This document shows, piece by piece, positions 23,546 to 36,319 of a stretch of DNA of 64,000 nt. The stretch is from Longimicrobiales bacterium (lineage in GTDB: Bacteria > Gemmatimonadota > Gemmatimonadetes > Longimicrobiales > Gaopeijiaceae). The notes under the pieces were generated by a model that saw nothing but the letters and a program-made list of their open reading frames with translations, did no database searches and was not told the origin of the DNA. Where the stretch lies: the NCBI GenBank assembly GCA_965202805.1, contig OZ241869.1, positions 2,560,001 through 2,624,000 of the forward strand, in the 5' to 3' direction. How positions within the stretch are numbered: position 1 is the stretch's first letter; the number at the start of each line of letters is the position of its first letter. The position numbers and the translations under genes are program-made.

Positions 23546-25861
23546 CTACCGCGAAAACAGGTACGTGACCTTGACGATCAGCTGCCGCTCGCGGAAGGAC
23601 GCGAACTCGTTGTACCTGCCGAAGTCGTCGTAGACGTTCCTGCGCAGTTCGTCGTAGACGATGTAGATGTCGCTCCCCGGCCGGTAGATGTAGTTGAAGC
23701 GCCCCGCAGTGCTCCACTGGTCGGTGAGCGAGTTGTACTGCGTAACGGTGCGCAGCGTCATCGTCGGCGAGAGCGCGTAGTCGATGCGGAACGACGCGAT
23801 GTCGGCGCTGAAGTCGCCCCCGGGCAGGCGGACGTCGTTGCGCGTGAACGCCCCCTCGGCGGCCAGCTGGCTGGTCAGCCTGAAGCCGGCACTGGCGCTG
23901 TAGTCGGTGCGGTCGCCGTCGAAGAAGGTCTGCGGAGAGTAGTAGACGGTCCCGTAGAGCCTGCGCGAAGGGTCGCTGTTGAACGAGAAGCGCCAGTCGC
24001 CGAAGCGGTAGGTCCCCGGCGCCACCACCACGTCCGGCCGCACGCGGAAGGGGTTGTCGAGCACTTCCAGGTTGGCATTGTACCAGATGTTGATGTAGGC
24101 CCCGTTCTGGAGCCTCGTCCCCAGCATGTGGTGGATGCGGCGGGTCACGAGCCGATTGTTCTGGTCGGTCGTGTAGGTGATGTTGACCATCGGGTCGAAG
24201 ACGCGCACTCCGAAGCGCCCCGGCCTGGGATTGCGCTCCAGGTGGAGCTTGCTGATGCGGATCCCGTTGCGCGGCAGGAAGCCCACCTCCGGGTTGAAGT
24301 TCTCCTGGAAGTCCGAGTACTCGCCGTAGACGTTCCAGTTCTCGTCGAGCCAGCCGAGGCGGATGTAGCCGGCCAGCTGGCCGTCGGTGACCCCCGTGGT
24401 CGAGGTCTTGGCGACGAAGCTGTTGACCAGGAAGGCGGGATGGGGGGCCAGCGTCATGTCCGCGGCGAAGGTGCGGTTGACGTAGTGGCCGTCGCCCACA
24501 TGCTTGTTGATGACCAGCGCGCCCACCTTGGAGCGCGCCATGATGTCGCGGCTGTAGCGGGCCACGAAGAAGTTCTCGCCGTCACGGCCGGGCATCCCCC
24601 CGCCAACATCGCCGGGCAGGCCGTCGGTCTGGATGTCCATGATGGCGATGTTGTTGCGACCCACCTTCCCGGTCAGCCGGGCGCCACCCAGGATGGGGAT
24701 GGGGTCGCCCGTCTCGGACAGGCCGATGCGACGGCTGAAGAACAGGTCCGCCACGCGCATGAAGGCGCTGTTGGTGCCGACGTTGAACTGGCCCGAGTTC
24801 TCCAGGAAGAAGTCGCGCTTCTCGGGATAGAAGAGAGCGAAGCGGGTCAGGTTGACCTGCTCGTCGTCGACTTCCGCCTGGGCGAAGTCGGTCCTGTAGG
24901 TGATGTCCAGGTTCAACCCGGCCGAGACCCCGTACTTGATGTCGAAACCGATGTCGCGTTGCCCGTCGTTCTCCACGACGCCCTCGGTGGCCACGCGCGT
25001 GCCGCCACCGGTGACGAACGGCTTGACGCGCAGGTCCATGCCCCGGTTCAGCGACTCGAGACCCGTCAGGCTGCCGGCCAGACTCACGCGCGTGAGGGTA
25101 TACGGCTTCGGAATGCCCGCCCAGAACGCCTGCTCGTTCTTGCGGCGGATGTTGCGCATGAAGTTGATGCCCCACTCCTGGCGCTCCTCGTCGGGGAAGC
25201 GCAGGGTGACCATCGGAATGGCGATCTCCGCAGCCCAGCCGTCGTCGGTTCTGCGCGCGCCGACGTGCCAGACCCCGTCCCAGTCCTTGTTGATGTTGGT
25301 CGCCACCCCGAAACCGCGCCGACTGCCTCCCTCGCCTTCCTCGAAAACCTGCTGCTCCAGCTTCGCCCCCAGCGGCGTGGTGACGAACATGTAGGCGGAA
25401 CGGAAGTCCCTGAAGGTGTCGAGGATGATCTGGAAGTTGTCCTCGTCGAGTATCCGGTCCGAGTCGCGGCGCATCTCGGTGGCGATGACCCCGTCCGGCT
25501 CGGAGTCGAAGGCGCGCACCCCGATGTAGAGGTTCTCCCCGTCGTAGAGGATGCGCGCCTCGGTACGCTCGGACGCCGGAGCGCCCTCGTCGGGCTCCTG
25601 CTGCACGAAGGCGTCGATGGCTTCGGCCGCTCTCCAGACCGGCTCGTCCAGGACTCCGTCCAGGACCGGCGCCTCGTCCACGCGGGAGGCGGCGACGCTG
25701 TGCCCGTTCCGGCCGTTCTGGGCGGATAGGGGCGCGGCCGTCGCGATGGCAACAAGAGCCGCGACCGCCAGGGCATGTACGCCGTGATGCACTCGCCGAA
25801 TGCCGGAACGATCGCGAGCCGTTCGCCGAATCGCTTCCAGGGACAAGAAGGCTGCTCCCAC
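23546..25861 (-). CDS. DUF5916 / CBM9-like domain outer-membrane protein (start uncertain; alternative GTG at 25792)
   Basis: LDGVLDEPVW, FVQQEP, TDFAQAEVD, NLTRFALFYPEKRDFFLE, C-terminal KVTYLF beta-strand. Confidence 0.85.
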   Translation of the reverse strand: MGAAFLSLEAIRRTARDRSGIRRVHHGVHALAVAALVAIATAAPLSAQNGRNGHSVAASRVDEAPVLDGVLDEPVWRAAEAIDAFVQQEPDEGAPASERTEARILYDGENLYIGVRAFDSEPDGVIATEMRRDSDRILDEDNFQIILDTFRDFRSAYMFVTTPLGAKLEQQVFEEGEGGSRRGFGVATNINKDWDGVWHVGARRTDDGWAAEIAIPMVTLRFPDEERQEWGINFMRNIRRKNEQAFWAGIPKPYTLTRVSLAGSLTGLESLNRGMDLRVKPFVTGGGTRVATEGVVENDGQRDIGFDIKYGVSAGLNLDITYRTDFAQAEVDDEQVNLTRFALFYPEKRDFFLENSGQFNVGTNSAFMRVADLFFSRRIGLSETGDPIPILGGARLTGKVGRNNIAIMDIQTDGLPGDVGGGMPGRDGENFFVARYSRDIMARSKVGALVINKHVGDGHYVNRTFAADMTLAPHPAFLVNSFVAKTSTTGVTDGQLAGYIRLGWLDENWNVYGEYSDFQENFNPEVGFLPRNGIRISKLHLERNPRPGRFGVRVFDPMVNITYTTDQNNRLVTRRIHHMLGTRLQNGAYINIWYNANLEVLDNPFRVRPDVVVAPGTYRFGDWRFSFNSDPSRRLYGTVYYSPQTFFDGDRTDYSASAGFRLTSQLAAEGAFTRNDVRLPGGDFSADIASFRIDYALSPTMTLRTVTQYNSLTDQWSTAGRFNYIYRPGSDIYIVYDELRRNVYDDFGRYNEFASFRERQLIVKVTYLFSR

Positions 25862-25882
25862 GAGGAAATCCTGTCTGGTTTG

Positions 25883-25920
25883 AAAGGAAAAAGCGCCGGG
25901 AGAACCTATCTCCCGGCGCT
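25883..25920 (-). terminator. Rho-independent terminator
   Basis: Perfect 12-bp stem AGCGCCGGGAGA/TCTCCCGGCGCT, 5-nt loop, T-rich tail on the minus strand. Confidence 0.8.
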
Positions 25921-25954
25921 CTTCCGGCGCCAGCCCGAGGGGTTCCCGGCTCCG

Positions 25955-27208
25955 CTAGCTGCCGCTGCCTCCACGCGGGCGGGCGGTGCGTCCGGTCGAA
26001 CTGCCGGACCCGCCCCTGTAGCCGCCGGAGGAGGTGCCGACCGACGAACCGCCGCTGCGGGACCCGCCGGACGACCACATGCCTCCGCCGTCGCTGCCCA
26101 CCGCGGTGGATCTGCCGCGGTCGCCGCCGCGAACGTACCCGAGGCCCCTGACCAGCCTGCCGCGCTGATCGGCCGGGCGCTCGCTCACCTGAACCACGAC
26201 CGGCCGGTACCCGATCCCGTAGTAGCCGCCGTACCCCATCCCGTAGCCGCCATAGCTGTACGGAGAGAAGCCGTACCGATAGGGGGAATACCCGTACCCG
26301 TAGAGCCCATATCCGCCATGGTAGCCGAAGCCGAACGGGGAATAGTACCAGGGATCCGTGCGTACCCTGCGGCGGTCCCGGTCGCGTTCGCGGTCCTGCC
26401 TGGCGAGCGCAACACCCCTGCGGTCCTCTTCGCGCAGCCGGAAGCGGTGGGGATTCGCGACCGCGACCACCACATCGATCACGTCCGGATCCACGCCTGC
26501 ATCCGCGATCCGGATGAGCTGCTCGGCGTTCACGTTCAGGTCGGGCTCGCTCTCGACCAGCCAGGCCTGCACCGTCTGGGCGTGCAGTGTCTGGCCCGCC
26601 TCGATGATCGCGGCGATGGTCGGCGACGTGGTGGAGTACATGCGCGCGGCCCGGATGGCCATCTCCTGGTCGTCCCCGAGGCCGGCGTATCCGGCCGCCT
26701 GCGTCGCCATGACGCCCGCCATGCGATAACGCTGCACCCAGGGCGTCACCTCGCCTTCGACCTCCACCGCACTGACGTCCATCCACTCGGTGGGGTTCAG
26801 CATGACCATCATGCCCGAGCCCTTCCGGGTCACCGTCCCGTCGCAGACGTGCTCGGAGCGGTGATACACCCGGTGGCCGTCCTGCGAGAAGCGCCAGGTG
26901 GTGGTGCCCTCGCACCCCTCCTGGGAGGCGTCCACGGGCCGTCCATCGGCGCGCGCCACCTCGCGCGATGCGACCTCGCCGTCGCGCACGGTCACGAACT
27001 CGGCCGAGAACCGGTCTTCTCCGGGCACCACGCACAGGGTCGGCCGCTCCGCGGCATCCTGCTCGAGGGGCGTCCAGCATCCCGTAAAGGCCAGCCAACT
27101 GCCGACTTCGGACTGTCCTTCCACAGGGACGGCGGCGACCACAAACAGCAACGCAACGACCGAACATCGCCGGGCGACGGCCGTCAGGGCTTCGTGATGT
27201 GCTTTCAT
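25955..27208 (-). CDS. Secreted hypothetical protein with Gly/Tyr-rich and Gly/Ser/Arg-rich C-terminus
   Basis: GGAGG RBS, signal peptide, low-complexity GY tract. Confidence 0.78.
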   Translation of the reverse strand: MKAHHEALTAVARRCSVVALLFVVAAVPVEGQSEVGSWLAFTGCWTPLEQDAAERPTLCVVPGEDRFSAEFVTVRDGEVASREVARADGRPVDASQEGCEGTTTWRFSQDGHRVYHRSEHVCDGTVTRKGSGMMVMLNPTEWMDVSAVEVEGEVTPWVQRYRMAGVMATQAAGYAGLGDDQEMAIRAARMYSTTSPTIAAIIEAGQTLHAQTVQAWLVESEPDLNVNAEQLIRIADAGVDPDVIDVVVAVANPHRFRLREEDRRGVALARQDRERDRDRRRVRTDPWYYSPFGFGYHGGYGLYGYGYSPYRYGFSPYSYGGYGMGYGGYYGIGYRPVVVQVSERPADQRGRLVRGLGYVRGGDRGRSTAVGSDGGGMWSSGGSRSGGSSVGTSSGGYRGGSGSSTGRTARPRGGSGS

Positions 27209-27255
27209 GTTGCTTTCCTCCACTGACGACTTGCTTCCATCCGAGGGCATCGCGG

Positions 27256-28011
27256 TCATCCGCTCATGCGGATTCCGATTCCCGCGAGAATCTGGAAGCC
27301 GGAAAGATCGATGTTCTCAAACCCCTCGAACGAACGATCCATGGGGCTGCTGGACCAAGAATAACGCCCTTCGCCCGTCAGCACGAATCGCGGGCCCAGC
27401 GCGTACTCGATGCCACCGAAGACATGCACGAAGGGAGCGGTGCCGTCCGACACCAGCAGGTCGTTGAAGACGTCGAGCGTCTCGATGTCGACGAAGTCCC
27501 CGTCCTGCTCGAACTTGTACACGTTGCCGCCCGCTCCCGCTCCCACATAGGGCACCAGCTGCGACGGCACCCAGGCGAAACGGCTCAGGCTGCGGCCGCG
27601 ATCGCGCAGGAAGTAGCGGGCGCTCACCGTGAAGGGAAGCTTGGAGTGGGTGGTGACCTGCTCGATCGGCTGGCCCCTGTTGTCTTCCCAGTCGCGGAAC
27701 TCGGAGAGCGTCTCGCTCCTGGCGTAGCCCACGCCCGCCACCAGCTCGAGTCTTTCGGTAAGGTGGACACCGATGTCGACCGTGATCGCCGGAGCCGCGA
27801 AGCTGCTCTTCTCCAGCGTCAGCAACTCGCTGGTGTAGCTGAAGATGTCGCTGTTCGCGCGGGGGATGTCGTATCCGGTGCGGAAGTTGAAGGTGGCGCC
27901 GGGACGGCTGAAGAGGAACCCCCTTCCTTCCTGGGCATGCAATGCGGAAGGCGGGAACGTTCCGGCCACAAGGAGCAAGGCGAGAAACGGCGCCGCGGTC
28001 TGTCGATTCAT
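27256..28011 (-). CDS. Outer-membrane beta-barrel protein
   Basis: Signal peptide ending LHA-Q; PYVGAGAG, GGIEY, EGRYSW, GFQILAGIGIR amphipathic strands. Confidence 0.8.
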   Translation of the reverse strand: MNRQTAAPFLALLLVAGTFPPSALHAQEGRGFLFSRPGATFNFRTGYDIPRANSDIFSYTSELLTLEKSSFAAPAITVDIGVHLTERLELVAGVGYARSETLSEFRDWEDNRGQPIEQVTTHSKLPFTVSARYFLRDRGRSLSRFAWVPSQLVPYVGAGAGGNVYKFEQDGDFVDIETLDVFNDLLVSDGTAPFVHVFGGIEYALGPRFVLTGEGRYSWSSSPMDRSFEGFENIDLSGFQILAGIGIRMSG

Positions 28012-28175
28012 GGAGGTCTCCCGGTAAGTTGGAGGCCGGCCCCGGGCACCGCTACTTGCGCATCCGGAACGTTGTTCTACACGATTTCCCGTAACGCGTT
28101 CGCCGCTCGGGCTCATCATGGTTCGCCGCTGGATGGGGAACCACGCTGCAATCATCGTGCCGAAGGAGTCACGCC

Positions 28176-29369
28176 ATGAACCACCCACGCACCTTTTCCT
28201 ACGCGCTGACCTGCGTCGCCGCCGCCGGTATCGTGGCACTCTCTTCCTGTACCATCGAGTCGGCGAGCCAGGCGCCCGACATGTCTGGCGAGGCGCCCAT
28301 CTTCGAGGTGGATCCGCTCTGGCCCAAGCCGCTGCCCAACCACTGGATCCTGGGTTCGACCATCGGCGTCGGGGTCGATTCGCGCGACCACGTCTTCATC
28401 ATCCACCGCCAGACCACCTTCAGCGACGTCAACGAGATCGGGGCCACCCTCGATCCACCCACCAGCGAATGCTGCGTGCCCGCGCCCAACGTGCTCGAGT
28501 TCGATCCCGAGGGGAACCTGGTCAACTCCTGGGGCGGCCCCGGAGAGGGCTACGACTGGCCCACCTCCAACCACGGCCTCAGCGTGGACCACCACGACAA
28601 TATCTGGATCGGGGGCAACGGCGGCCCGGACGGGCAGCTGCTCAAGTTCAGCCGCGACGGCGAGTTCCTGATGCAGGTGGGCGTGGCCGACGCTCAGCCC
28701 AACAGCACCTCCACGGAGCACTTCTCCCGGGTGGCGAAGATCTCCTTCGACGGCACCACCGACGAGGCCTTCGTCGCCGACGGCTACGGCAATCGCCGGG
28801 TGGTGGTGCTCGACTCCAACACCGGGGAATTCAAACGCTACTGGGGCGCCTACGGCAACGAGCCCAGCGACGACCTGGTACCGTCGCACACGCCCGACGG
28901 CCCGCCGCAGCAGCAGTTCCGCACCCCGGTGCACTGCGCCGACCCCTCGGCGGACGGGCTGGTCTACGTATGCGACCGCGCCGGCAACCGCATCCAGGTC
29001 TTCCAGAGCGACGGCACCTTCGTGCGCGAGGCCTTCATCGCCAACGCGACCCTGGGCGGGGGATCGGTGTGGGACATCACCTTCTCGCGCGATGCCGACC
29101 AGCGCTTCGTGTACGTGGCCGACGGGATGAACAAGGTGGTCCATGTGCTGGACCGCGAGAGCCTCGAGGTTCTCACCAGCTTTGGCGGCGGCGGGCGCCA
29201 GCCGGGCCAGTTCTACGGGGTGCACAGCGTCGCGACCGATTCGCAGGGCAACCTCTACACCACCGAGACCTACGAGGGCAAGCGCCTGCAGAAGTTCGTC
29301 TTCATGGGGACCGGACCGGTGACCGCGGAGCATCAGGGGGCTCTGTGGCCGCAGAGCGGAGGTGAGTAG
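28176..29369 (+). CDS. NHL-repeat beta-propeller lipoprotein (PAL-like family)
   Basis: Lipobox LSSC; FEVDPLWPKPLPNHW, VADGYGNRRV, VCDRAGNRIQVF, DSQGNLYT. Confidence 0.88.
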   Translation: MNHPRTFSYALTCVAAAGIVALSSCTIESASQAPDMSGEAPIFEVDPLWPKPLPNHWILGSTIGVGVDSRDHVFIIHRQTTFSDVNEIGATLDPPTSECCVPAPNVLEFDPEGNLVNSWGGPGEGYDWPTSNHGLSVDHHDNIWIGGNGGPDGQLLKFSRDGEFLMQVGVADAQPNSTSTEHFSRVAKISFDGTTDEAFVADGYGNRRVVVLDSNTGEFKRYWGAYGNEPSDDLVPSHTPDGPPQQQFRTPVHCADPSADGLVYVCDRAGNRIQVFQSDGTFVREAFIANATLGGGSVWDITFSRDADQRFVYVADGMNKVVHVLDRESLEVLTSFGGGGRQPGQFYGVHSVATDSQGNLYTTETYEGKRLQKFVFMGTGPVTAEHQGALWPQSGGE

Positions 29370-29468
29370 GCGCGGCGTGCCGGTCATTTTGGACGGAGAA
29401 TTCACGGGCGCGAAGCCCGGACGCTGGATCCGGGGGCCGGTGCATGAGCCGCGGGAGGGTTCCGCGGG

Positions 29469-31721
29469 ATGAACTCGCCGAGGCCCGGGGGCTTCTCCCG
29501 GGCCGTTTGCCTCCCGGTGCTGGCCGCCCTGCTGGCTCCCGTCCCCATCGTCGCCCAGGCCAACGGGCCCGAGGCGCGCGCGACCGCGAACCCCGTGCCC
29601 CGTCCCCCCACCATCGACGGGGTGCTCGACGAGCCCTTCTGGGCGATGATCGAGCCGGTCACCGACTTCCGCCAGCGCGACCCGGTGGACGGCGCGCCCG
29701 CCAGCGAGCCCACCGAGGTGCGCATCGGCTACGACGCCAACGCCCTCTACTTCGGCTTCGTCTTCCACGACTCCGAGCCCGCGCTCATCCGGCGCAGCAT
29801 CCTGCACCGGGGCGGGCGCATCGACAAGGACGACCGCGTCATCGTCGCGCTGGACACGTATCACGACCGCCGCAACGCCTACATCTTCGAGGTCGGCGCG
29901 CTGGGGACGCAGGACGACGCCCTCATCTCCGACGAGAGCATGACCCTGGACGACTGGAACTGGGACGGGGTGTTCACCAGCGAGACCCGGGTTACCGAGG
30001 ATGGCTGGGTGCTCGAGCTCGAGATCCCCTTCACCACCATCCGCTTTCCGGACACCGACGAGCCCACCATGGGCATCGCCTTCATGCGCTCGATCCGGCG
30101 CAAGAACGAGAGCGTGCTCTGGCCGCACATCGGGCAGGAGTACCGCTCGGGCATCTCTCAGGTGTCGCGCTATGCGACGCTGGAGGGGCTGCGCGGGCTC
30201 AGGCGCGGCCGCTACGCGGAGGTCAAGCCGTTCGCGATCGCGGGGACTCAGCGCATGGCGGGGGACGCGAGCTTCGAGGGGCAGACCGACGTGGGGCTCG
30301 ACGTCAAGTACGCCCTGACCTCGAATCTCACCTTCGACCTGACCTGGAACACCGACTTCGCGCAGGTGGAGTCGGACAACGTCCAGATCAACCTCACCCG
30401 CTTCGACCTCTTCTATCCCGAGAAACGGGAGTTCTTCCTGGAGCGAGCCGGCCTCTTCCAGTTCGGGACCCCGCGCCAGACCGAGGTCTTCTTCAGCCGG
30501 CGGGTCGGGCTCCAGGGCGACATCGCGGGAGGAGGGCGGCTCACCGGGCAGGCCGGACCCCTCTCGATCGGTGCCCTGGGGCTGCGCACGCGCGGATACT
30601 CGGATGATGCGCTCGCTCTGCCGGCGGCGTGGAACTCGGTGGTGCGGCTGCGAACCGACTTGCGACCGCGCACGACCCTCGGCGGGATCATCACCAGCCT
30701 CGATCACGAGAACGGCTGGGACCGCACCGCGGGTATGGACTTTTCCAGCCGCTTCTGGAGCAGCAGCGCCTTCAATGTGTGGGCGGCGCGGGTGTGGAAT
30801 CCGGACTTTGCCCCCTCCGCGACGGAGGTTTCGGGATCACCCGGGGGCACGGTATCGCCCGGATCCGCGGAGCCCCGGGACGCGGGCAGCGCCAACGCCG
30901 CGTCCGCCGAGCTGGTGCTCCAGAACGACCTGTACGTCGCGGGCGTTTCGCGCCTGGTCATAGACGATGGCTTTCAGCCGGCGCTGGGGTTCGTGCCCCG
31001 CACCGACCAGGACCGGTGGGAGGGCCGCGCCGGGGTCACACCCCGCTTCGAGTCCAGTAGCTGGGCGCGCCAGCTGATGCTCGACGTGAGCGGCCACCAC
31101 ATCCGGGGCAGAGACGGTGCGAAGCAGACTCACGAACTGGGAGCGAGCGCCGGACTGAACTTCCAGAGCGGGGAGTTCGCCAACATCGGGTTCCGCGAGC
31201 GCTTCGAGCGGCTGGAGACGCCGGCGCGAATCAGCGGACGGCGTCTCGCGGCCGGTGACTATCGCTTCCGGAGTCTCTACGCGCATGTGCGCACCAACGA
31301 CAGCCGCACCTTCTCCGGCGCGATTGCCGGATCCATCGGCGACTTCTGGTCCGGCACGCGGACCGAGATCGGAGGCGGCGCCACCTGGATCACCGGCCCG
31401 CACCTCACCATTGGCGGGAGGTATTCGTGGAACGGCGTCTCGTTGCCGGTGGAGGACGGGGATTTCTCGACCCACCTGGTGAGCGCAAACATCCAGGGCG
31501 CGGTGAGCCGCAAGCTCTTCGCCAACGCGCTCGTGCAGTGGGACAACCACTCGCGGGAGCTGCAGGCCAACATCCGCATCGACTGGATCCACACCCCTGG
31601 CAGCGACCTCTTCGTGGTCATCGATACAGGCTACCTGACCGGCGACCTCCTCGACCCGCGCGAGCCGCGCTGGCAGCGGCGCACGGGCGTGGTGAAGCTG
31701 ACGTATCTGATGGCGTTCTGA
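29469..31721 (+). CDS. DUF5916 / CBM9-like domain outer-membrane protein
   Basis: IDGVLDEPFW, NTDFAQVESD, NLTRFDLFYPEKREFFLE, KLTYLMAF. Confidence 0.87.
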   Translation: MNSPRPGGFSRAVCLPVLAALLAPVPIVAQANGPEARATANPVPRPPTIDGVLDEPFWAMIEPVTDFRQRDPVDGAPASEPTEVRIGYDANALYFGFVFHDSEPALIRRSILHRGGRIDKDDRVIVALDTYHDRRNAYIFEVGALGTQDDALISDESMTLDDWNWDGVFTSETRVTEDGWVLELEIPFTTIRFPDTDEPTMGIAFMRSIRRKNESVLWPHIGQEYRSGISQVSRYATLEGLRGLRRGRYAEVKPFAIAGTQRMAGDASFEGQTDVGLDVKYALTSNLTFDLTWNTDFAQVESDNVQINLTRFDLFYPEKREFFLERAGLFQFGTPRQTEVFFSRRVGLQGDIAGGGRLTGQAGPLSIGALGLRTRGYSDDALALPAAWNSVVRLRTDLRPRTTLGGIITSLDHENGWDRTAGMDFSSRFWSSSAFNVWAARVWNPDFAPSATEVSGSPGGTVSPGSAEPRDAGSANAASAELVLQNDLYVAGVSRLVIDDGFQPALGFVPRTDQDRWEGRAGVTPRFESSSWARQLMLDVSGHHIRGRDGAKQTHELGASAGLNFQSGEFANIGFRERFERLETPARISGRRLAAGDYRFRSLYAHVRTNDSRTFSGAIAGSIGDFWSGTRTEIGGGATWITGPHLTIGGRYSWNGVSLPVEDGDFSTHLVSANIQGAVSRKLFANALVQWDNHSRELQANIRIDWIHTPGSDLFVVIDTGYLTGDLLDPREPRWQRRTGVVKLTYLMAF

Positions 31722-32022: not shown

Positions 32023-33554
32023 ACGCCGCCGGGGGTACGGCACTCACGCGCCGAAGCTTCGTGAAGGGCGCGGCGGCGGCCGCGGCCGCGCCGTGGGTGC
32101 CCATGTCGCGGCAGCCGCGTTGGACCATCCCGCCGGTCGAACCGCAGGCGGTCCCGCTCTACGACCTGGAGGTGTGGCAGGCGGCCGATCTGATCCGCCG
32201 GCGAATCGTATCTCCCGTCGAGTTGGCCGAGGTGACCCTCGAACGCATCGCGGAAACCGAGCCGCGGATCGAGACCTTCGTGAACCAGTACCCGGCCGAC
32301 GAGATCATGGCCCAGGCGGAAGCCGCCGAGGACGAGATCGCTGCGGGGCGCTACCTCGGACCTCTGCACGGAATCACCGTGGGGCTGAAGGACATCTACC
32401 TGACGGAGGGCAAGGTCACCGAGGGGAACTCCGGTCTCTACAGGGGCTTCACCCCCTCCTTCGACGCGACCTCCGTGGCAAGGCTCAAGGCCGCGGGAGC
32501 CGTCATCGTGGGCAAGGTGGGCACCAGCGAATTGGCCACTGCGGACCAATGGCCTGCGAAAAACCCCTGGGACTTCGATCGAGTTGCCGGCGGATCCAGC
32601 ACGGGCTCCGCGACCGGTGTCGCGGCGTCCCAGTTCATGGTGGGAATGGGCACCTGCACCGGCGGTTCAATCCGTGGTCCGGCCGCCAACTGCGGCATCA
32701 CGGGGCTCAAGCCCACCTACGGAGCCATCAGCCTGCACGGGGTCCTCCCCCTCGCGTGGTCCATGGACCACCCCGGCCCGATGGTGCACAGCGCCCGGGA
32801 CGCGGCGCTGGTGCTGGACGCGGTGGGTGGTGAAGACCCACTGGACCCGCACTCCCGCAAGGTGGCCCGCTACCGGACCGCCGAGGCGCTCTTCCTGGAG
32901 CCCCGGCCCAACCCCCTCGAGCGGGTGGTGGTGGGCGTCCCCGCCGAAGACGACTTCCTCATGGGCGTGCCCAACGACGAGCAACTGGGCGCCTTCGGGG
33001 AAGCGGTGGAGGTGATGAGATCACTGGGGGCTACGGTCCGCACCGTGCGCACCAACGTGCTCTTCCCGGGACTCACGAGCCTGAGTTCGTTCTACCTGAT
33101 CATCCGAAGCGCGGAGGTGGGAGCGTATCAGCGGCACAACCTGCTGACCCAGCCCGAGAACATGTCCGAGGCCTACCGTTCGCGGGTCGCTTCGGGTGTG
33201 CTGATGCCGGGGCACGCCTACGTACAGGCTCAGCGGGTGCGCCGGCACTGGCGCGATCAGTTCCTCACCGTCTTCGATGAATGCGACGTGCTCATTCACC
33301 CGGCGGACGACATTGCCGGACTGGTCGAGGGTGAGGATCCCCCGCGTCCCCGGGAGTCGACCGGGAGCAAGACCAATCTCTGGAACCTGTCGGGGGCACC
33401 GGCCGTCGCCATCCCCACCGGGTTCTCCGAGGTGGAGGGAATGCCGCTGTCGATGCAGGTGGCGGCCGCTCCCGGGCGCGATGAGATTGCGCTCATCGTC
33501 GCGGACGCCTTCCAGCAGGTGACCGGGCACCACAGGGCGCGGCCGGCGTTGTAG
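32019..33554 (+). CDS. Amidase-signature family enzyme with Tat signal
   Basis: TRRSFVKG twin-arginine motif; GPLHGITVGLKD, GGSSTGS, GTCTGGSIRGPA. Confidence 0.92.
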   Translation: MNAAGGTALTRRSFVKGAAAAAAAPWVPMSRQPRWTIPPVEPQAVPLYDLEVWQAADLIRRRIVSPVELAEVTLERIAETEPRIETFVNQYPADEIMAQAEAAEDEIAAGRYLGPLHGITVGLKDIYLTEGKVTEGNSGLYRGFTPSFDATSVARLKAAGAVIVGKVGTSELATADQWPAKNPWDFDRVAGGSSTGSATGVAASQFMVGMGTCTGGSIRGPAANCGITGLKPTYGAISLHGVLPLAWSMDHPGPMVHSARDAALVLDAVGGEDPLDPHSRKVARYRTAEALFLEPRPNPLERVVVGVPAEDDFLMGVPNDEQLGAFGEAVEVMRSLGATVRTVRTNVLFPGLTSLSSFYLIIRSAEVGAYQRHNLLTQPENMSEAYRSRVASGVLMPGHAYVQAQRVRRHWRDQFLTVFDECDVLIHPADDIAGLVEGEDPPRPRESTGSKTNLWNLSGAPAVAIPTGFSEVEGMPLSMQVAAAPGRDEIALIVADAFQQVTGHHRARPAL

Positions 33555-33631
33555 GAAGGTCCGGGGAGGCAGGGCGGGCCCGGAGCGGGATCGGCGACGC
33601 GCGGCTTCCGCGACGGCTCGGCGCCGCTGCT

Positions 33632-34216
33632 TCAGCCTGGTCTGCCCCAGGGCCGCACAAACGTCTCCGGCTCCACCCCCAGCCCGTCCGCTACCCGCGT
33701 GATGTAGTTGAAGTACCCGATCACCTGGGTCGCGTCGTGGATCGCGCGGTCGTCGAAGCCATGGCCGCGGAGCACTTCCAGATCATCCGCTCCCACTTCC
33801 GCCTGCCTGAGCGTCAGCTTCTCCGCATAGTCGCACAGCGCCTGGTCCGCCTCCGACAATCCCGCCTCGCGCCAGTCGCGCACGATGGCGTGCACGAAGG
33901 CGTCCCGCTCCTCGTCCGTCCCGAACAGCTCCTCGATCTCTTCCCGGAGATCATGCGCGTGCGCCTGCTCTCAGTAGAAGCAGCCGTTCACCTTCGAGGT
34001 GACCACGGCGAGCATCTCACGACGCCAGCGGTTCAGCGGGGAAGGCCCGAACATCAGCGTGCGGTAGAACCGCATGGTGGTCTGCATGACCCGGGGGTTC
34101 AGGCTCATCACGCGCACGATGTTCCAGATCCGGCCGGCCCGGTCCCGCGCCTCGCCGTACAGCTTGCTCAGGAGGCCGGCGGCCTCGGATTCGGAGATCT
34201 CTCTGATGTGGGACAT
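33632..34216 (-). CDS. AhpD/peroxidase-related enzyme, putative selenoprotein (Sec82, in-frame TGA at 33971-33973)
   Basis: One continuous frame: MSHIREI...REMLAVVTSKVNGCFY-TGA-EQAHAHDLRE...YAEKLT...GYFNYITRVADGLG; TGA occupies the second Cys of NxCxYC; SECIS-like hairpin follows. Confidence 0.85.
33935..33952 (-). promoter_or_regulatory. Putative bacterial SECIS element
   Basis: mRNA GAUCUC-CGGGAA-GAGAUC; stem starts 18 nt after UGA; G at loop position 2. Confidence 0.65.
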
Positions 34217-34224
34217 GGGCAGGA

Positions 34225-36177
34225 CTACCTCGAAACCCCTTCGAAGTTGGTGTTCACGCCCGAGCGCCGGCTGCGGACCATCTGCGCGTCGGCGAATCCT
34301 CGCACCAGCCCGATGAAATCGCCAGCACTCGCGCGGAACATGGGCCCGCGCCCCGAGTCCGCGCCAACCGGCCAGGCCAGGTCGATGCGCGTGACGCGGC
34401 TCGAACCCGCCGGGAATGCGAGACGCAACCCGGCGCCGACAGCCCCCTTCCAGCCGGTGTCCGTGCCGAAGGGAACATCGCCTGCCCAGGCCCGTCCGGC
34501 ATCGGCGAAGAAGGTCATCCCCAGGTCGATCGAGGACGGGGCCGGCCACCCCAGATCCACGCGATTCTCGAAGGAAGCCACCACCCGGCGGCCCGCCGGA
34601 AAGTCCTCCTCCTTGTACCCGCGCACCACGTCCCGGCCTCCCAGGGTCAGCTGGAAGGGCGAAATGGTATTCCAGCCGCCGGCTGCGGAGACTCGCGCGA
34701 CCAGCGTCTTCGCGAAGCCCACACCGGGCTGCCAGTAGGCAAGCAGGTCGGCCTCCGAGAAGATGTCCCGCCAGCGCCCCGCCGCCTCGTCCTCGAAACG
34801 CACCCGCCGCGCCTCCGTCTCCGCATTCACCAGCAGCACCGCCGATGCCGAACCCACGCCCCCGAAGAACGAGACGCGGCCCATGAAATCGCTCGCAAGC
34901 GCGGCCGGTGACGCCCGCAATGACTCGTCTTGCCCCGACAGCCACCTTCCCAGCGGCAGACGCGGCCCCAGCGTCAGGGAAAGATCGACGCCCTGCGGTA
35001 CGCTCTGCTCCCCGCTCACCGCGTCCAGCCCGCGCCGGGTCTCGAAACGCACTTTTCGCCTGGCGAGAAGCAGGTTGAAACGGGTGAGATCGTGCCCTCG
35101 CGTCTGGCCCGCGAGACGGGAGCCGATGCCCGGTTCGTCGTCGAGCAGGTTGCCGAAGTCCAGACCCCGAACGAGCGACACGGAGTCCGGATACTCATCG
35201 AAGCGCAGCGTTTCGTGCGTGATGCCGAAACCGAGCAGGGTCAGATTCCCCGGCTCACCGAAGCGGTACGCCTGCGTGGCTTCGATGCGCTCCTCGAGCT
35301 CCGGAAGGAGGGCGTAGCTGTATTCGAATCCGGGATCGAGCACGTAGGGAAAGAGCGACTCGCGCCGGTAGAATCGCAGACGCCCCGCGAAGCGCCCCAC
35401 TTCTCCCACGAACGGGTAGACCAGCATCGCCTCGGCGAATCCGCCCGAGCGAGTTCGGCCCCAGTTGAAGCGCCCGTCCAGCCGTGTGCCGGCGAGGCGC
35501 GTGGAGTGCAGGGTGAGACCGTAGTCCTGTCGCTGCTTGCGCTCCTGGTAGAAGGCGCCGATCAGGTTGCCCGAGCCCAGGAAGTTCTCCTCCACCACGC
35601 TCGCGCCCTCGAACTGCAGCCCGTCATCGACGGTCACGTCGATCTGGATCTTGGTGGTCCACTCGTCGCGCGTCGTCACCCGCACGTGACGGGTGCCGTC
35701 CGGCTGGGGCTCCGCGACGATGTCCGCGGTAGCGATGAAGCCGAGTTCGCGCAGGATCCGTTCGGACTCCTCGAAGAGAAACGGGCCCGGGCAGTCCCCC
35801 TCGCCGAACAGCAGCTCGCCGGCGATGAATCCCTCCCGCGTGTCGACGTGCATGAAGTTGGCGAGCCCGCGCGTCCAGCGCAGAATGCGCGGCTGGGTCG
35901 GCGGTCCCGGGTCGAAGATGGGCTGGCTTTCGATGACGATGCGCGAGACCGGTCCCGCCTCGCAGGCCACGTCGTCACCGGGCGTCTGCGCACGTGCCGG
36001 AGCTGCCGCCAGGAGCCCGAACAGGAGGCAGGCGAGCAGACCGCCGCAGCGGGACGCGAGCGGCTGATTCCGGGAAACGCGGCACCATGAAGGGCTCGGG
36101 ACCCGAGGGCAGCCGGAGGAGCGGACGAAGACGGAAGCCGCGCCCGCAGGCGGAGCCGGAACTGCGAGATGAGGCAA
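34225..36177 (-). CDS. Omp85/BamA-TamA family outer-membrane protein (start uncertain)
   Basis: Signal-like GLLACLLFGLLAAAPARA-Q; POTRA-like ELLFGEGD...ESERILREL; VRGY and FFADAGRAW barrel motifs; nearest in-frame starts are TTG 36177 and ATG 36273. Confidence 0.8.
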   Translation of the reverse strand: MPHLAVPAPPAGAASVFVRSSGCPRVPSPSWCRVSRNQPLASRCGGLLACLLFGLLAAAPARAQTPGDDVACEAGPVSRIVIESQPIFDPGPPTQPRILRWTRGLANFMHVDTREGFIAGELLFGEGDCPGPFLFEESERILRELGFIATADIVAEPQPDGTRHVRVTTRDEWTTKIQIDVTVDDGLQFEGASVVEENFLGSGNLIGAFYQERKQRQDYGLTLHSTRLAGTRLDGRFNWGRTRSGGFAEAMLVYPFVGEVGRFAGRLRFYRRESLFPYVLDPGFEYSYALLPELEERIEATQAYRFGEPGNLTLLGFGITHETLRFDEYPDSVSLVRGLDFGNLLDDEPGIGSRLAGQTRGHDLTRFNLLLARRKVRFETRRGLDAVSGEQSVPQGVDLSLTLGPRLPLGRWLSGQDESLRASPAALASDFMGRVSFFGGVGSASAVLLVNAETEARRVRFEDEAAGRWRDIFSEADLLAYWQPGVGFAKTLVARVSAAGGWNTISPFQLTLGGRDVVRGYKEEDFPAGRRVVASFENRVDLGWPAPSSIDLGMTFFADAGRAWAGDVPFGTDTGWKGAVGAGLRLAFPAGSSRVTRIDLAWPVGADSGRGPMFRASAGDFIGLVRGFADAQMVRSRRSGVNTNFEGVSR

Positions 36178-36319
36178 AGGCGCCGTGGGATGTTGCTCGG
36201 AGGGAAGTTTGACTCGGAACTGGCGGAACCCGGGCCCGAAAACCCGGCAATATGCCCGAAGCCGACGTTCCATGCTATGACACCCGCGGGTCCGATGTTC
36301 CCGGTCGGCTGCGCCCCCG

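Follow-up and report, generated by a model that had tools for sequence, protein, structure and literature searches.

A predicted AhpD-like selenoprotein gene with an in-frame TGA and a conserved SECIS-like hairpin in a Longimicrobiales genome

Organization of the locus

The locus lies in a window of 64,000 nt (contig OZ241869.1 of a Longimicrobiales bacterium, positions 2,560,001 to 2,624,000), and its features are collected in Table 1. On the minus strand, a single reading frame extends from an ATG at 34216 over 81 codons to a TGA (33973-33971) and continues for another 112 codons before it ends at a TGA stop (33634-33632). If the internal TGA is read, the predicted product has 194 aa, with the context ...VNGCFY-U-EQAH.... 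The initial annotation, which gave no strand, had described two fragments of one frame parted only by this TGA and amounting to 194 aa, and had foreseen that standard annotation would split the gene. The description holds for the minus strand, and mechanical ORF calling indeed yields two pieces, one that ends at 33971 and another of 87 aa at 33895-33632. Codon 83 is GAG and offers no start codon. The plus-strand reading of 33632-34216 is open as well, but its translation is unrelated and it was rejected.

The AhpD-like gene is likely co-transcribed with the Omp85-domain gene upstream; promoter and terminator scans of 33400-36300 returned nothing. When the neighbourhoods of 109 loci were compared, the Omp85-domain gene was found upstream in 20 and an amidase downstream in 8, each confined to close kin, and no redox partner gene stood beside the AhpD-like gene, so that the neighbourhood was set aside as a guide to function. 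Immediately beyond the amidase in the downstream direction, positions 23546-31721 of the window carry a pair of DUF5916/CBM9-like outer-membrane-type genes, of which Pfam confirmed one, together with genes for an NHL-repeat protein and for a repeat-rich protein that is presumably YXWGXW-like.

Table 1. Features of the locus and further candidate selenoprotein genes (window positions, except for the last row, which gives host-genome positions)
Feature	Position	Strand	Remarks
AhpD-like (TIGR01926) gene	33632..34216	minus	194 codons, one in-frame TGA, ordinary TGA stop
In-frame TGA, codon 82, predicted selenocysteine	33971..33973	minus	aligns with second Cys of AhpD CxxC
Cys79, first residue of CxxU	33980..33982	minus	Cys in 108/108 loci
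Glu67, proton-relay position	34016..34018	minus	PA0269 Glu36 / M. tuberculosis Glu118 by spacing
His86, proton-relay position	33959..33961	minus	PA0269 His55 / M. tuberculosis His137 by spacing
Predicted bacterial SECIS upper stem-loop	33934..33953	minus	6-bp stem plus U-G, 6-nt loop, G at loop position 2
Shine-Dalgarno-like GAGG	34228..34231	minus	overlaps end of upstream gene; from sequence, putative function
Upstream co-directional gene, Omp85-superfamily domain, start not fixed	34225..35826	minus	stop TAG 34227-34225, 8 nt before ATG
Six candidate selenoprotein genes	G000:C1:84101(-), 1802767(+), 358187(-), 104147(+), 2635862(+), 1711389(-)		L128-L132

Protein family and predicted active site

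The predicted product matches the NCBIfam model TIGR01926 over residues 7-183 with 129.5 bits (cut-off 81.8), and Pfam CMD is likewise above its cut-off, compatible with a putative all-helical CMD fold. Apart from the AhpD core domain TIGR00778, other AhpD-related NCBIfam models fall below their cut-offs, including AhpD proper (TIGR00777, 16.7 bits against a cut-off of 191.95). A predicted AhpD/CMD fold and a Sec-capable motif are shared with two (seleno)protein models, the AhpD-related NF041238 and the YciW-related NF053654, but the gene is a member of neither (a weak match of 60.3 of 175 bits and 18 of 310 bits, respectively). Full-length matches to solved structures were obtained for the 'peroxidase-related' entries 6K40, 2OYO, 2PFX, 3C1L and 2PRR (E 4e-28 to 4e-16), all of which share the pattern E-x11-C-x-Y-C-x3-H, with Cys in the column of the TGA of this gene. 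PDB 6K40 bears the name 'Alkyl hydroperoxide reductase AhpD', and we take it to be DR1765 of Deinococcus radiodurans.

According to the review PMC8945050, a DR_1765 mutant is sensitive to H2O2 and protection needs both cysteines. PA0269 of P. aeruginosa was also matched (E 6e-7); its relay is reported to consist of Glu36, Cys48, Tyr50, Cys51 and His55, and this Cys-containing relative is described as only a weak peroxidase (PMC3141380). The spacing of the five-residue proton relay in the predicted protein is identical to that of PA0269 and of M. tuberculosis AhpD (PMC3141380), and the putative active site appears to match the AhpD relay. E67, C79, Y81 and H86 are invariant in 100/100 TGA loci.

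No AhpC, the classic AhpD partner, was detected above cut-off in the host genome, and a lipoamide dehydrogenase is present there. A protein search for paralogs matched this gene alone in the host genome, in which three other CMD-domain matches carry no internal stop. AhpD is described as being reduced by lipoyl proteins and NADH (PMC8945050).

Conservation of the in-frame TGA

A full-length ortholog was found in 14 of 18 genus relatives, and codon 82 is TGA in all 14. In one of the other four the ortholog is cut by a contig end, and another has no closer homolog than a distant one that bears the TGA; the gene has no match in the last two, which are near-complete single-contig genomes, and is therefore dispensable. 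Orthologs measure 192-194 aa in 13 of the 14 relatives; one genus ortholog, L020, lacks the usual stop at codon 195 and reads on to 232 aa. Comparison with the 14 genus orthologs gave a dN/dS of 0.146 over codons 2-81 and of 0.097 over codons 97-190: purifying selection acts on both halves, and neither is decaying.

GTDB was scanned with a pattern from the C-terminal half, away from the TGA, which confirmed 585 relatives. The best 80 of these were kept, and every one of the 80 has TGA at the codon-82 column; they come from Gemmatimonadota, Chloroflexota, Acidobacteriota, Planctomycetota, Actinomycetota, Latescibacterota and other phyla. Altogether 110 loci were examined, 108 of which cover column 82, with TGA in 100 (three of them near-duplicates of genus loci) and TGC in 8. 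This is the alternation of Cys and TGA that the initial annotation had expected from a homolog alignment, and the orthologs in the genus (14/14) and the best GTDB loci (80/80) run counter to its suggested objection that the TGA might be unique to this assembly. Another of its suggested objections, TGC or TGT in sequencing reads, found no counterpart either, since contigs of four public runs span codon 82 with no other letter. Two of these runs are RNA libraries, one is likely DNA and one is of unrecorded kind. The two RNA-library contigs across the TGA differ elsewhere at 25 and 15 positions and come from relatives; they are compatible with expression, although contigs cannot show transcription or strand.

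Three records in the locus collection carry titles at odds with their content: the title of L045, a locus of 93% identity, reads Gammaproteobacteria, and L066 and L082 are titled Klebsiella yet carry Chloroflexota-like copies. All three are probably mislabelled bins.

At column 82, the 120 listed database homologs show W in 62, the start of a fragment at residue 83 in 36, C in 13, G, R or L in 5 (G in 2) and a gap in 4. One W clade was followed to the DNA level in 80 marine metagenome contigs of 30% GC; column 82 is TGA in 80/80, while two true Trp columns of the same contigs are TGG in 80/80, and the database W of the tested clade is thus a miscall. Public gene calls cut these genes at the TGA or insert Trp, which hides a redox active site and needs correction. 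A sister group (P0015, P0016, P0020-P0025, P0027 and P0029) has Cys at the Sec column; in nine of its proteins the first Cys is replaced by Thr (TxxC), possibly a one-cysteine variant.

The TGA form also co-occurs with selA, which was found in 48/50 genomes carrying it (the first 50 of the best 80) versus 1/14 control genomes. Across 41 relatives, selA was present in 19/20 genomes with a verified TGA homolog (a count that includes one partial match at a contig edge and kin that are not independent) versus 1/8 of those with only Cys homologs. A selA match was absent from 2/50 of the TGA-form genomes and from one 78%-complete relative with the TGA form.

The hairpin downstream of the TGA

After an 18-nt spacer, the UGA is followed by GAUCUC (33952-33947), the loop CGGGAA (33946-33941) and GAGAUC (33940-33935), exactly the perfect 6-bp stem that the initial annotation had placed there. 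One extra U-G pair lies outside this stem, and the loop begins 24 nt after the UGA. The bacterial SECIS model given in PMC13188914 has a loop of 3-9 nt, a stem of 4-16 bp, a G in the first two loop positions, a spacing of 16-37 nt and an energy of at most -7.5 kcal/mol. The SECIS prediction proposed in the initial annotation came out in its favour: with a loop of 6, a stem of 6-7, a G at position 2 and a spacing of 24, the hairpin lies within the four published constraints (PMC13188914). Its energy of -16.4 kcal/mol for 55 nt is also within the limit; the upper stem alone has -6.9. The MFE version of the test is passed by 92/100 TGA loci and 3/8 Cys loci. Rfam gave 0 matches in the window and has no family for the hairpin.

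In four windows, hairpin stability relative to shuffled sequences is unremarkable (z 0.29, 0.49, -0.37 and -0.17), and a G-loop hairpin of equal stability follows 58/523 (11%) of the ordinary terminal TGAs of the host genome. Folding energy, which is not above shuffles, was accordingly rejected as evidence for a SECIS element, and the genome-wide hairpin test is unspecific.

Conservation gives a clear pattern. Synonymous divergence among the 14 genus orthologs is 0.018 in codons 83-96 versus 0.238 and 0.288 in the two halves of the gene. Codon fixation was assessed in 77 loci, i.e., the best 80 of 585 less three near-duplicates. Leu90 is CTC in 77/77 (background 33.5%) and Glu93 is GAG in 77/77 (background 56.5%); Arg91 is encoded only by CGT or CGG, and CGC, which accounts for 43.6% elsewhere, never occurs. 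At the equally conserved control columns Arg66, Glu67 and Leu69, codons vary freely in the same 77 loci. Even in the 80 genes of 30% GC, the SECIS codons CGG, TCG and GAG are each found in 80/80 and CTC in 76/80.

For the stem alignment, the window was combined with 70 of the 77 loci (L050, L055, L057, L082, L090, L101 and L118 were left out). In this alignment, 97.8% of the stem cells are paired versus 21-47% for slid controls, and pair 24-37 shows compensatory change (C-G 61, U-A 7, U-G 3). Cells with a double change exceed all 500 shuffles, a type of count that kinship inflates; the count of two covarying pairs does not exceed that of the shuffles (310/500). The hairpin is conserved beyond protein need, at the codon level and across phyla. 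It is conservation, not energy, that exceeds chance, and we regard the hairpin as a predicted SECIS element.

Selenocysteine machinery and further candidate selenoproteins

The host genome (G000) is a single contig of 4.02 Mb, 98% complete, with 68% GC. The initial annotation had predicted selA, selB, selC and selD elsewhere in the genome, and the machinery proved complete: selA, selB and selD are each above their curated cut-offs, and a 97-nt tRNA-Sec with UCA anticodon was found (74.8 bits), the sole UCA-anticodon tRNA of the genome. In SelD, encoded at G000:C1:2228350-2229264(-), the N-terminal motif is written with Cys instead of TGA, and the surrounding open frame spans 810 codons and may represent an Ndh-SelD-type fusion; CxxC-type Ndh-SelD fusions are mentioned in PMC2398784. 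Of the 14 runs that contain at least half of the words of the locus, seven, which stem from two studies, carry the label sponge metagenome, and the host is likely a sponge-associated member of Gemmatimonadota.

A codon-model and family scan of the host genome, which was not exhaustive and gives a lower bound, identified at least six further candidate selenoprotein genes with TGA at the catalytic Cys position. The six comprise a formate-dehydrogenase-type molybdopterin enzyme, a Prx-like UxxC protein, a Prx/BCP-like protein, two OsmC-like proteins and a member of the UGSC family; by script, a SECIS-like hairpin was found in five of them. OsmC-family matches with one TGA occur in 18/18 genus relatives. 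With these results, a Gemmatimonadota genus that is likely sponge-associated joins the predicted users of Sec; antioxidant-type enzymes dominate its candidate selenoproteome. We found no paper naming Sec use in Gemmatimonadota; BSepDB, which covers 88 lineages, may already list the lineage.

Two observations concern other tRNA genes of the host. A tRNA-like gene of 82 nt at G000:C1:502084-502165(+) has a long variable arm, a weak D-arm, 48.5 bits against the Rfam tRNA family and the anticodon UUA, which would read the ochre stop. It has no close copy in 40 relatives and adjoins a lower-GC stretch with a small ORF, presumably HNH-like by its motif; the gene is likely a decayed tRNA-Leu at the edge of an island. 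In addition, 17 tRNA genes lie on one strand within 3 kb, at G000:C1:2827836-2830698(-).

Interpretation and alternative readings

The gene is very probably intact, with UGA codon 82 decoded as Sec by the SelA/SelB/SelD/tRNA-Sec system of the genome through the predicted SECIS element to give a 194-aa AhpD-like CxxU enzyme, predicted to act as a reductant of peroxides or of oxidised peroxidases. Sec decoding at codon 82, as proposed in the initial annotation, is by itself extremely likely as judged from the genomic evidence: the machinery, the shared TGA and the codon-level conservation of the SECIS element all support it. By analogy with characterised relatives, a role as thiol/selenol oxidoreductase in oxidative-stress defence is likely.

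Mechanistically, there are strong grounds to expect that SelB would recognise the apical loop with its G, 24 nt beyond the UGA, and deliver Sec-tRNA; the terminal TGA is followed by sequence that is not conserved and would end translation. By homology, Glu67, Cys79, Tyr81, Sec82 and His86 would copy the five-residue proton relay of AhpD. In M. tuberculosis AhpD, the second cysteine reacts first. Sec82, which replaces this second cysteine, would on the same homology form a selenenyl-sulfide with Cys79 and then be re-reduced. Electrons might, as for AhpD, be supplied by NADH via lipoamide dehydrogenase and a lipoyl protein.

A pseudogene, a split gene or an assembly error, with the TGA as a genuine stop or an erroneous base, would fit the way ORF calling divides the gene and the 36 of 120 listed homologs that are fragments from residue 83. 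It is nevertheless exceedingly improbable, given that the TGA sits at the same column in many phyla, that the interruption coincides with the catalytic column and parts two halves under purifying selection, that the contigs of four runs hold no other letter and that GAG at codon 83 is not a start. Hardly more credible is an organism-wide alternative code with UGA read as Trp, Gly or Cys, as the W in 62 and the G in 2 of the 120 listed homologs might suggest. TGA is the commonest stop of the host genome (523/863 long coding-like frames) and also ends this gene, so the code is not globally changed; moreover, the only UCA-anticodon tRNA is of the Sec type, and the tested W clade has TGA at this column in 80/80 with TGG at real Trp.

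An alternative that concerns function rather than decoding is that the same selenoprotein serves mainly as a disulfide-reducing adaptor that recycles OsmC-like or peroxiredoxin-like proteins and is not a direct peroxidase. AhpD is reported to act as an adaptor in M. tuberculosis and to regenerate OsmC in C. glutamicum (PMC8945050), and the host genome holds three OsmC-family and 11 AhpC/TSA-family matches above cut-off; on the other hand, no partner gene is adjacent and AhpC proper is missing. We consider this a possible but doubtful account, compatible with the preferred reading of a Sec-containing peroxide or peroxidase reductant up to the last step. A further, speculative and rather unlikely extension is that, without AhpC, the Sec-AhpD-like enzyme would be the lipoyl-fed reductant for Sec-OsmC and Sec-peroxiredoxin in an all-selenium peroxide-defence relay; the SECIS element, nearly sequence-invariant in hosts of 30% to 68% GC, would then be written into the H-D-L-R-x-E motif as a portable element that the SelB proteins of many phyla can read.

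Relation to the known AhpD-like selenoprotein family

The statement of the initial annotation that Sec-containing AhpD-like proteins form a described class is borne out by PMC1088965, PMC2398784 and PMC13188914. AhpD-like CxxU selenoproteins were described in 2005 from the Sargasso Sea metagenome with 27 sequences (PMC1088965), and the GOS survey counted 299 AhpD-like sequences as 'AhpD-like 1' (PMC2398784); few marine selenoprotein families are commoner than AhpD-like CxxU. A 2026 review lists the family with TIGR01926 (PMC13188914), the link between COG2128 and TIGR01926 can be drawn from tables of PMC13188914 and PMC1088965, and the family serves as the browsing example of BSepDB (PMC13326102). 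Family and mechanism are already known, and the gene is an ordinary member. Among the papers listed by a literature search, none showed a biochemically characterised Sec-containing AhpD-like enzyme, and the gene, with its well-defined predicted SECIS element, offers a convenient test case. With the known family it shares TIGR01926, the CxxU motif, a SECIS-like stem-loop after the UGA and Cys homologs, and nothing defining differs; compared with that family, the present subgroup has an insertion of about eight residues after the SECIS-encoded helix.
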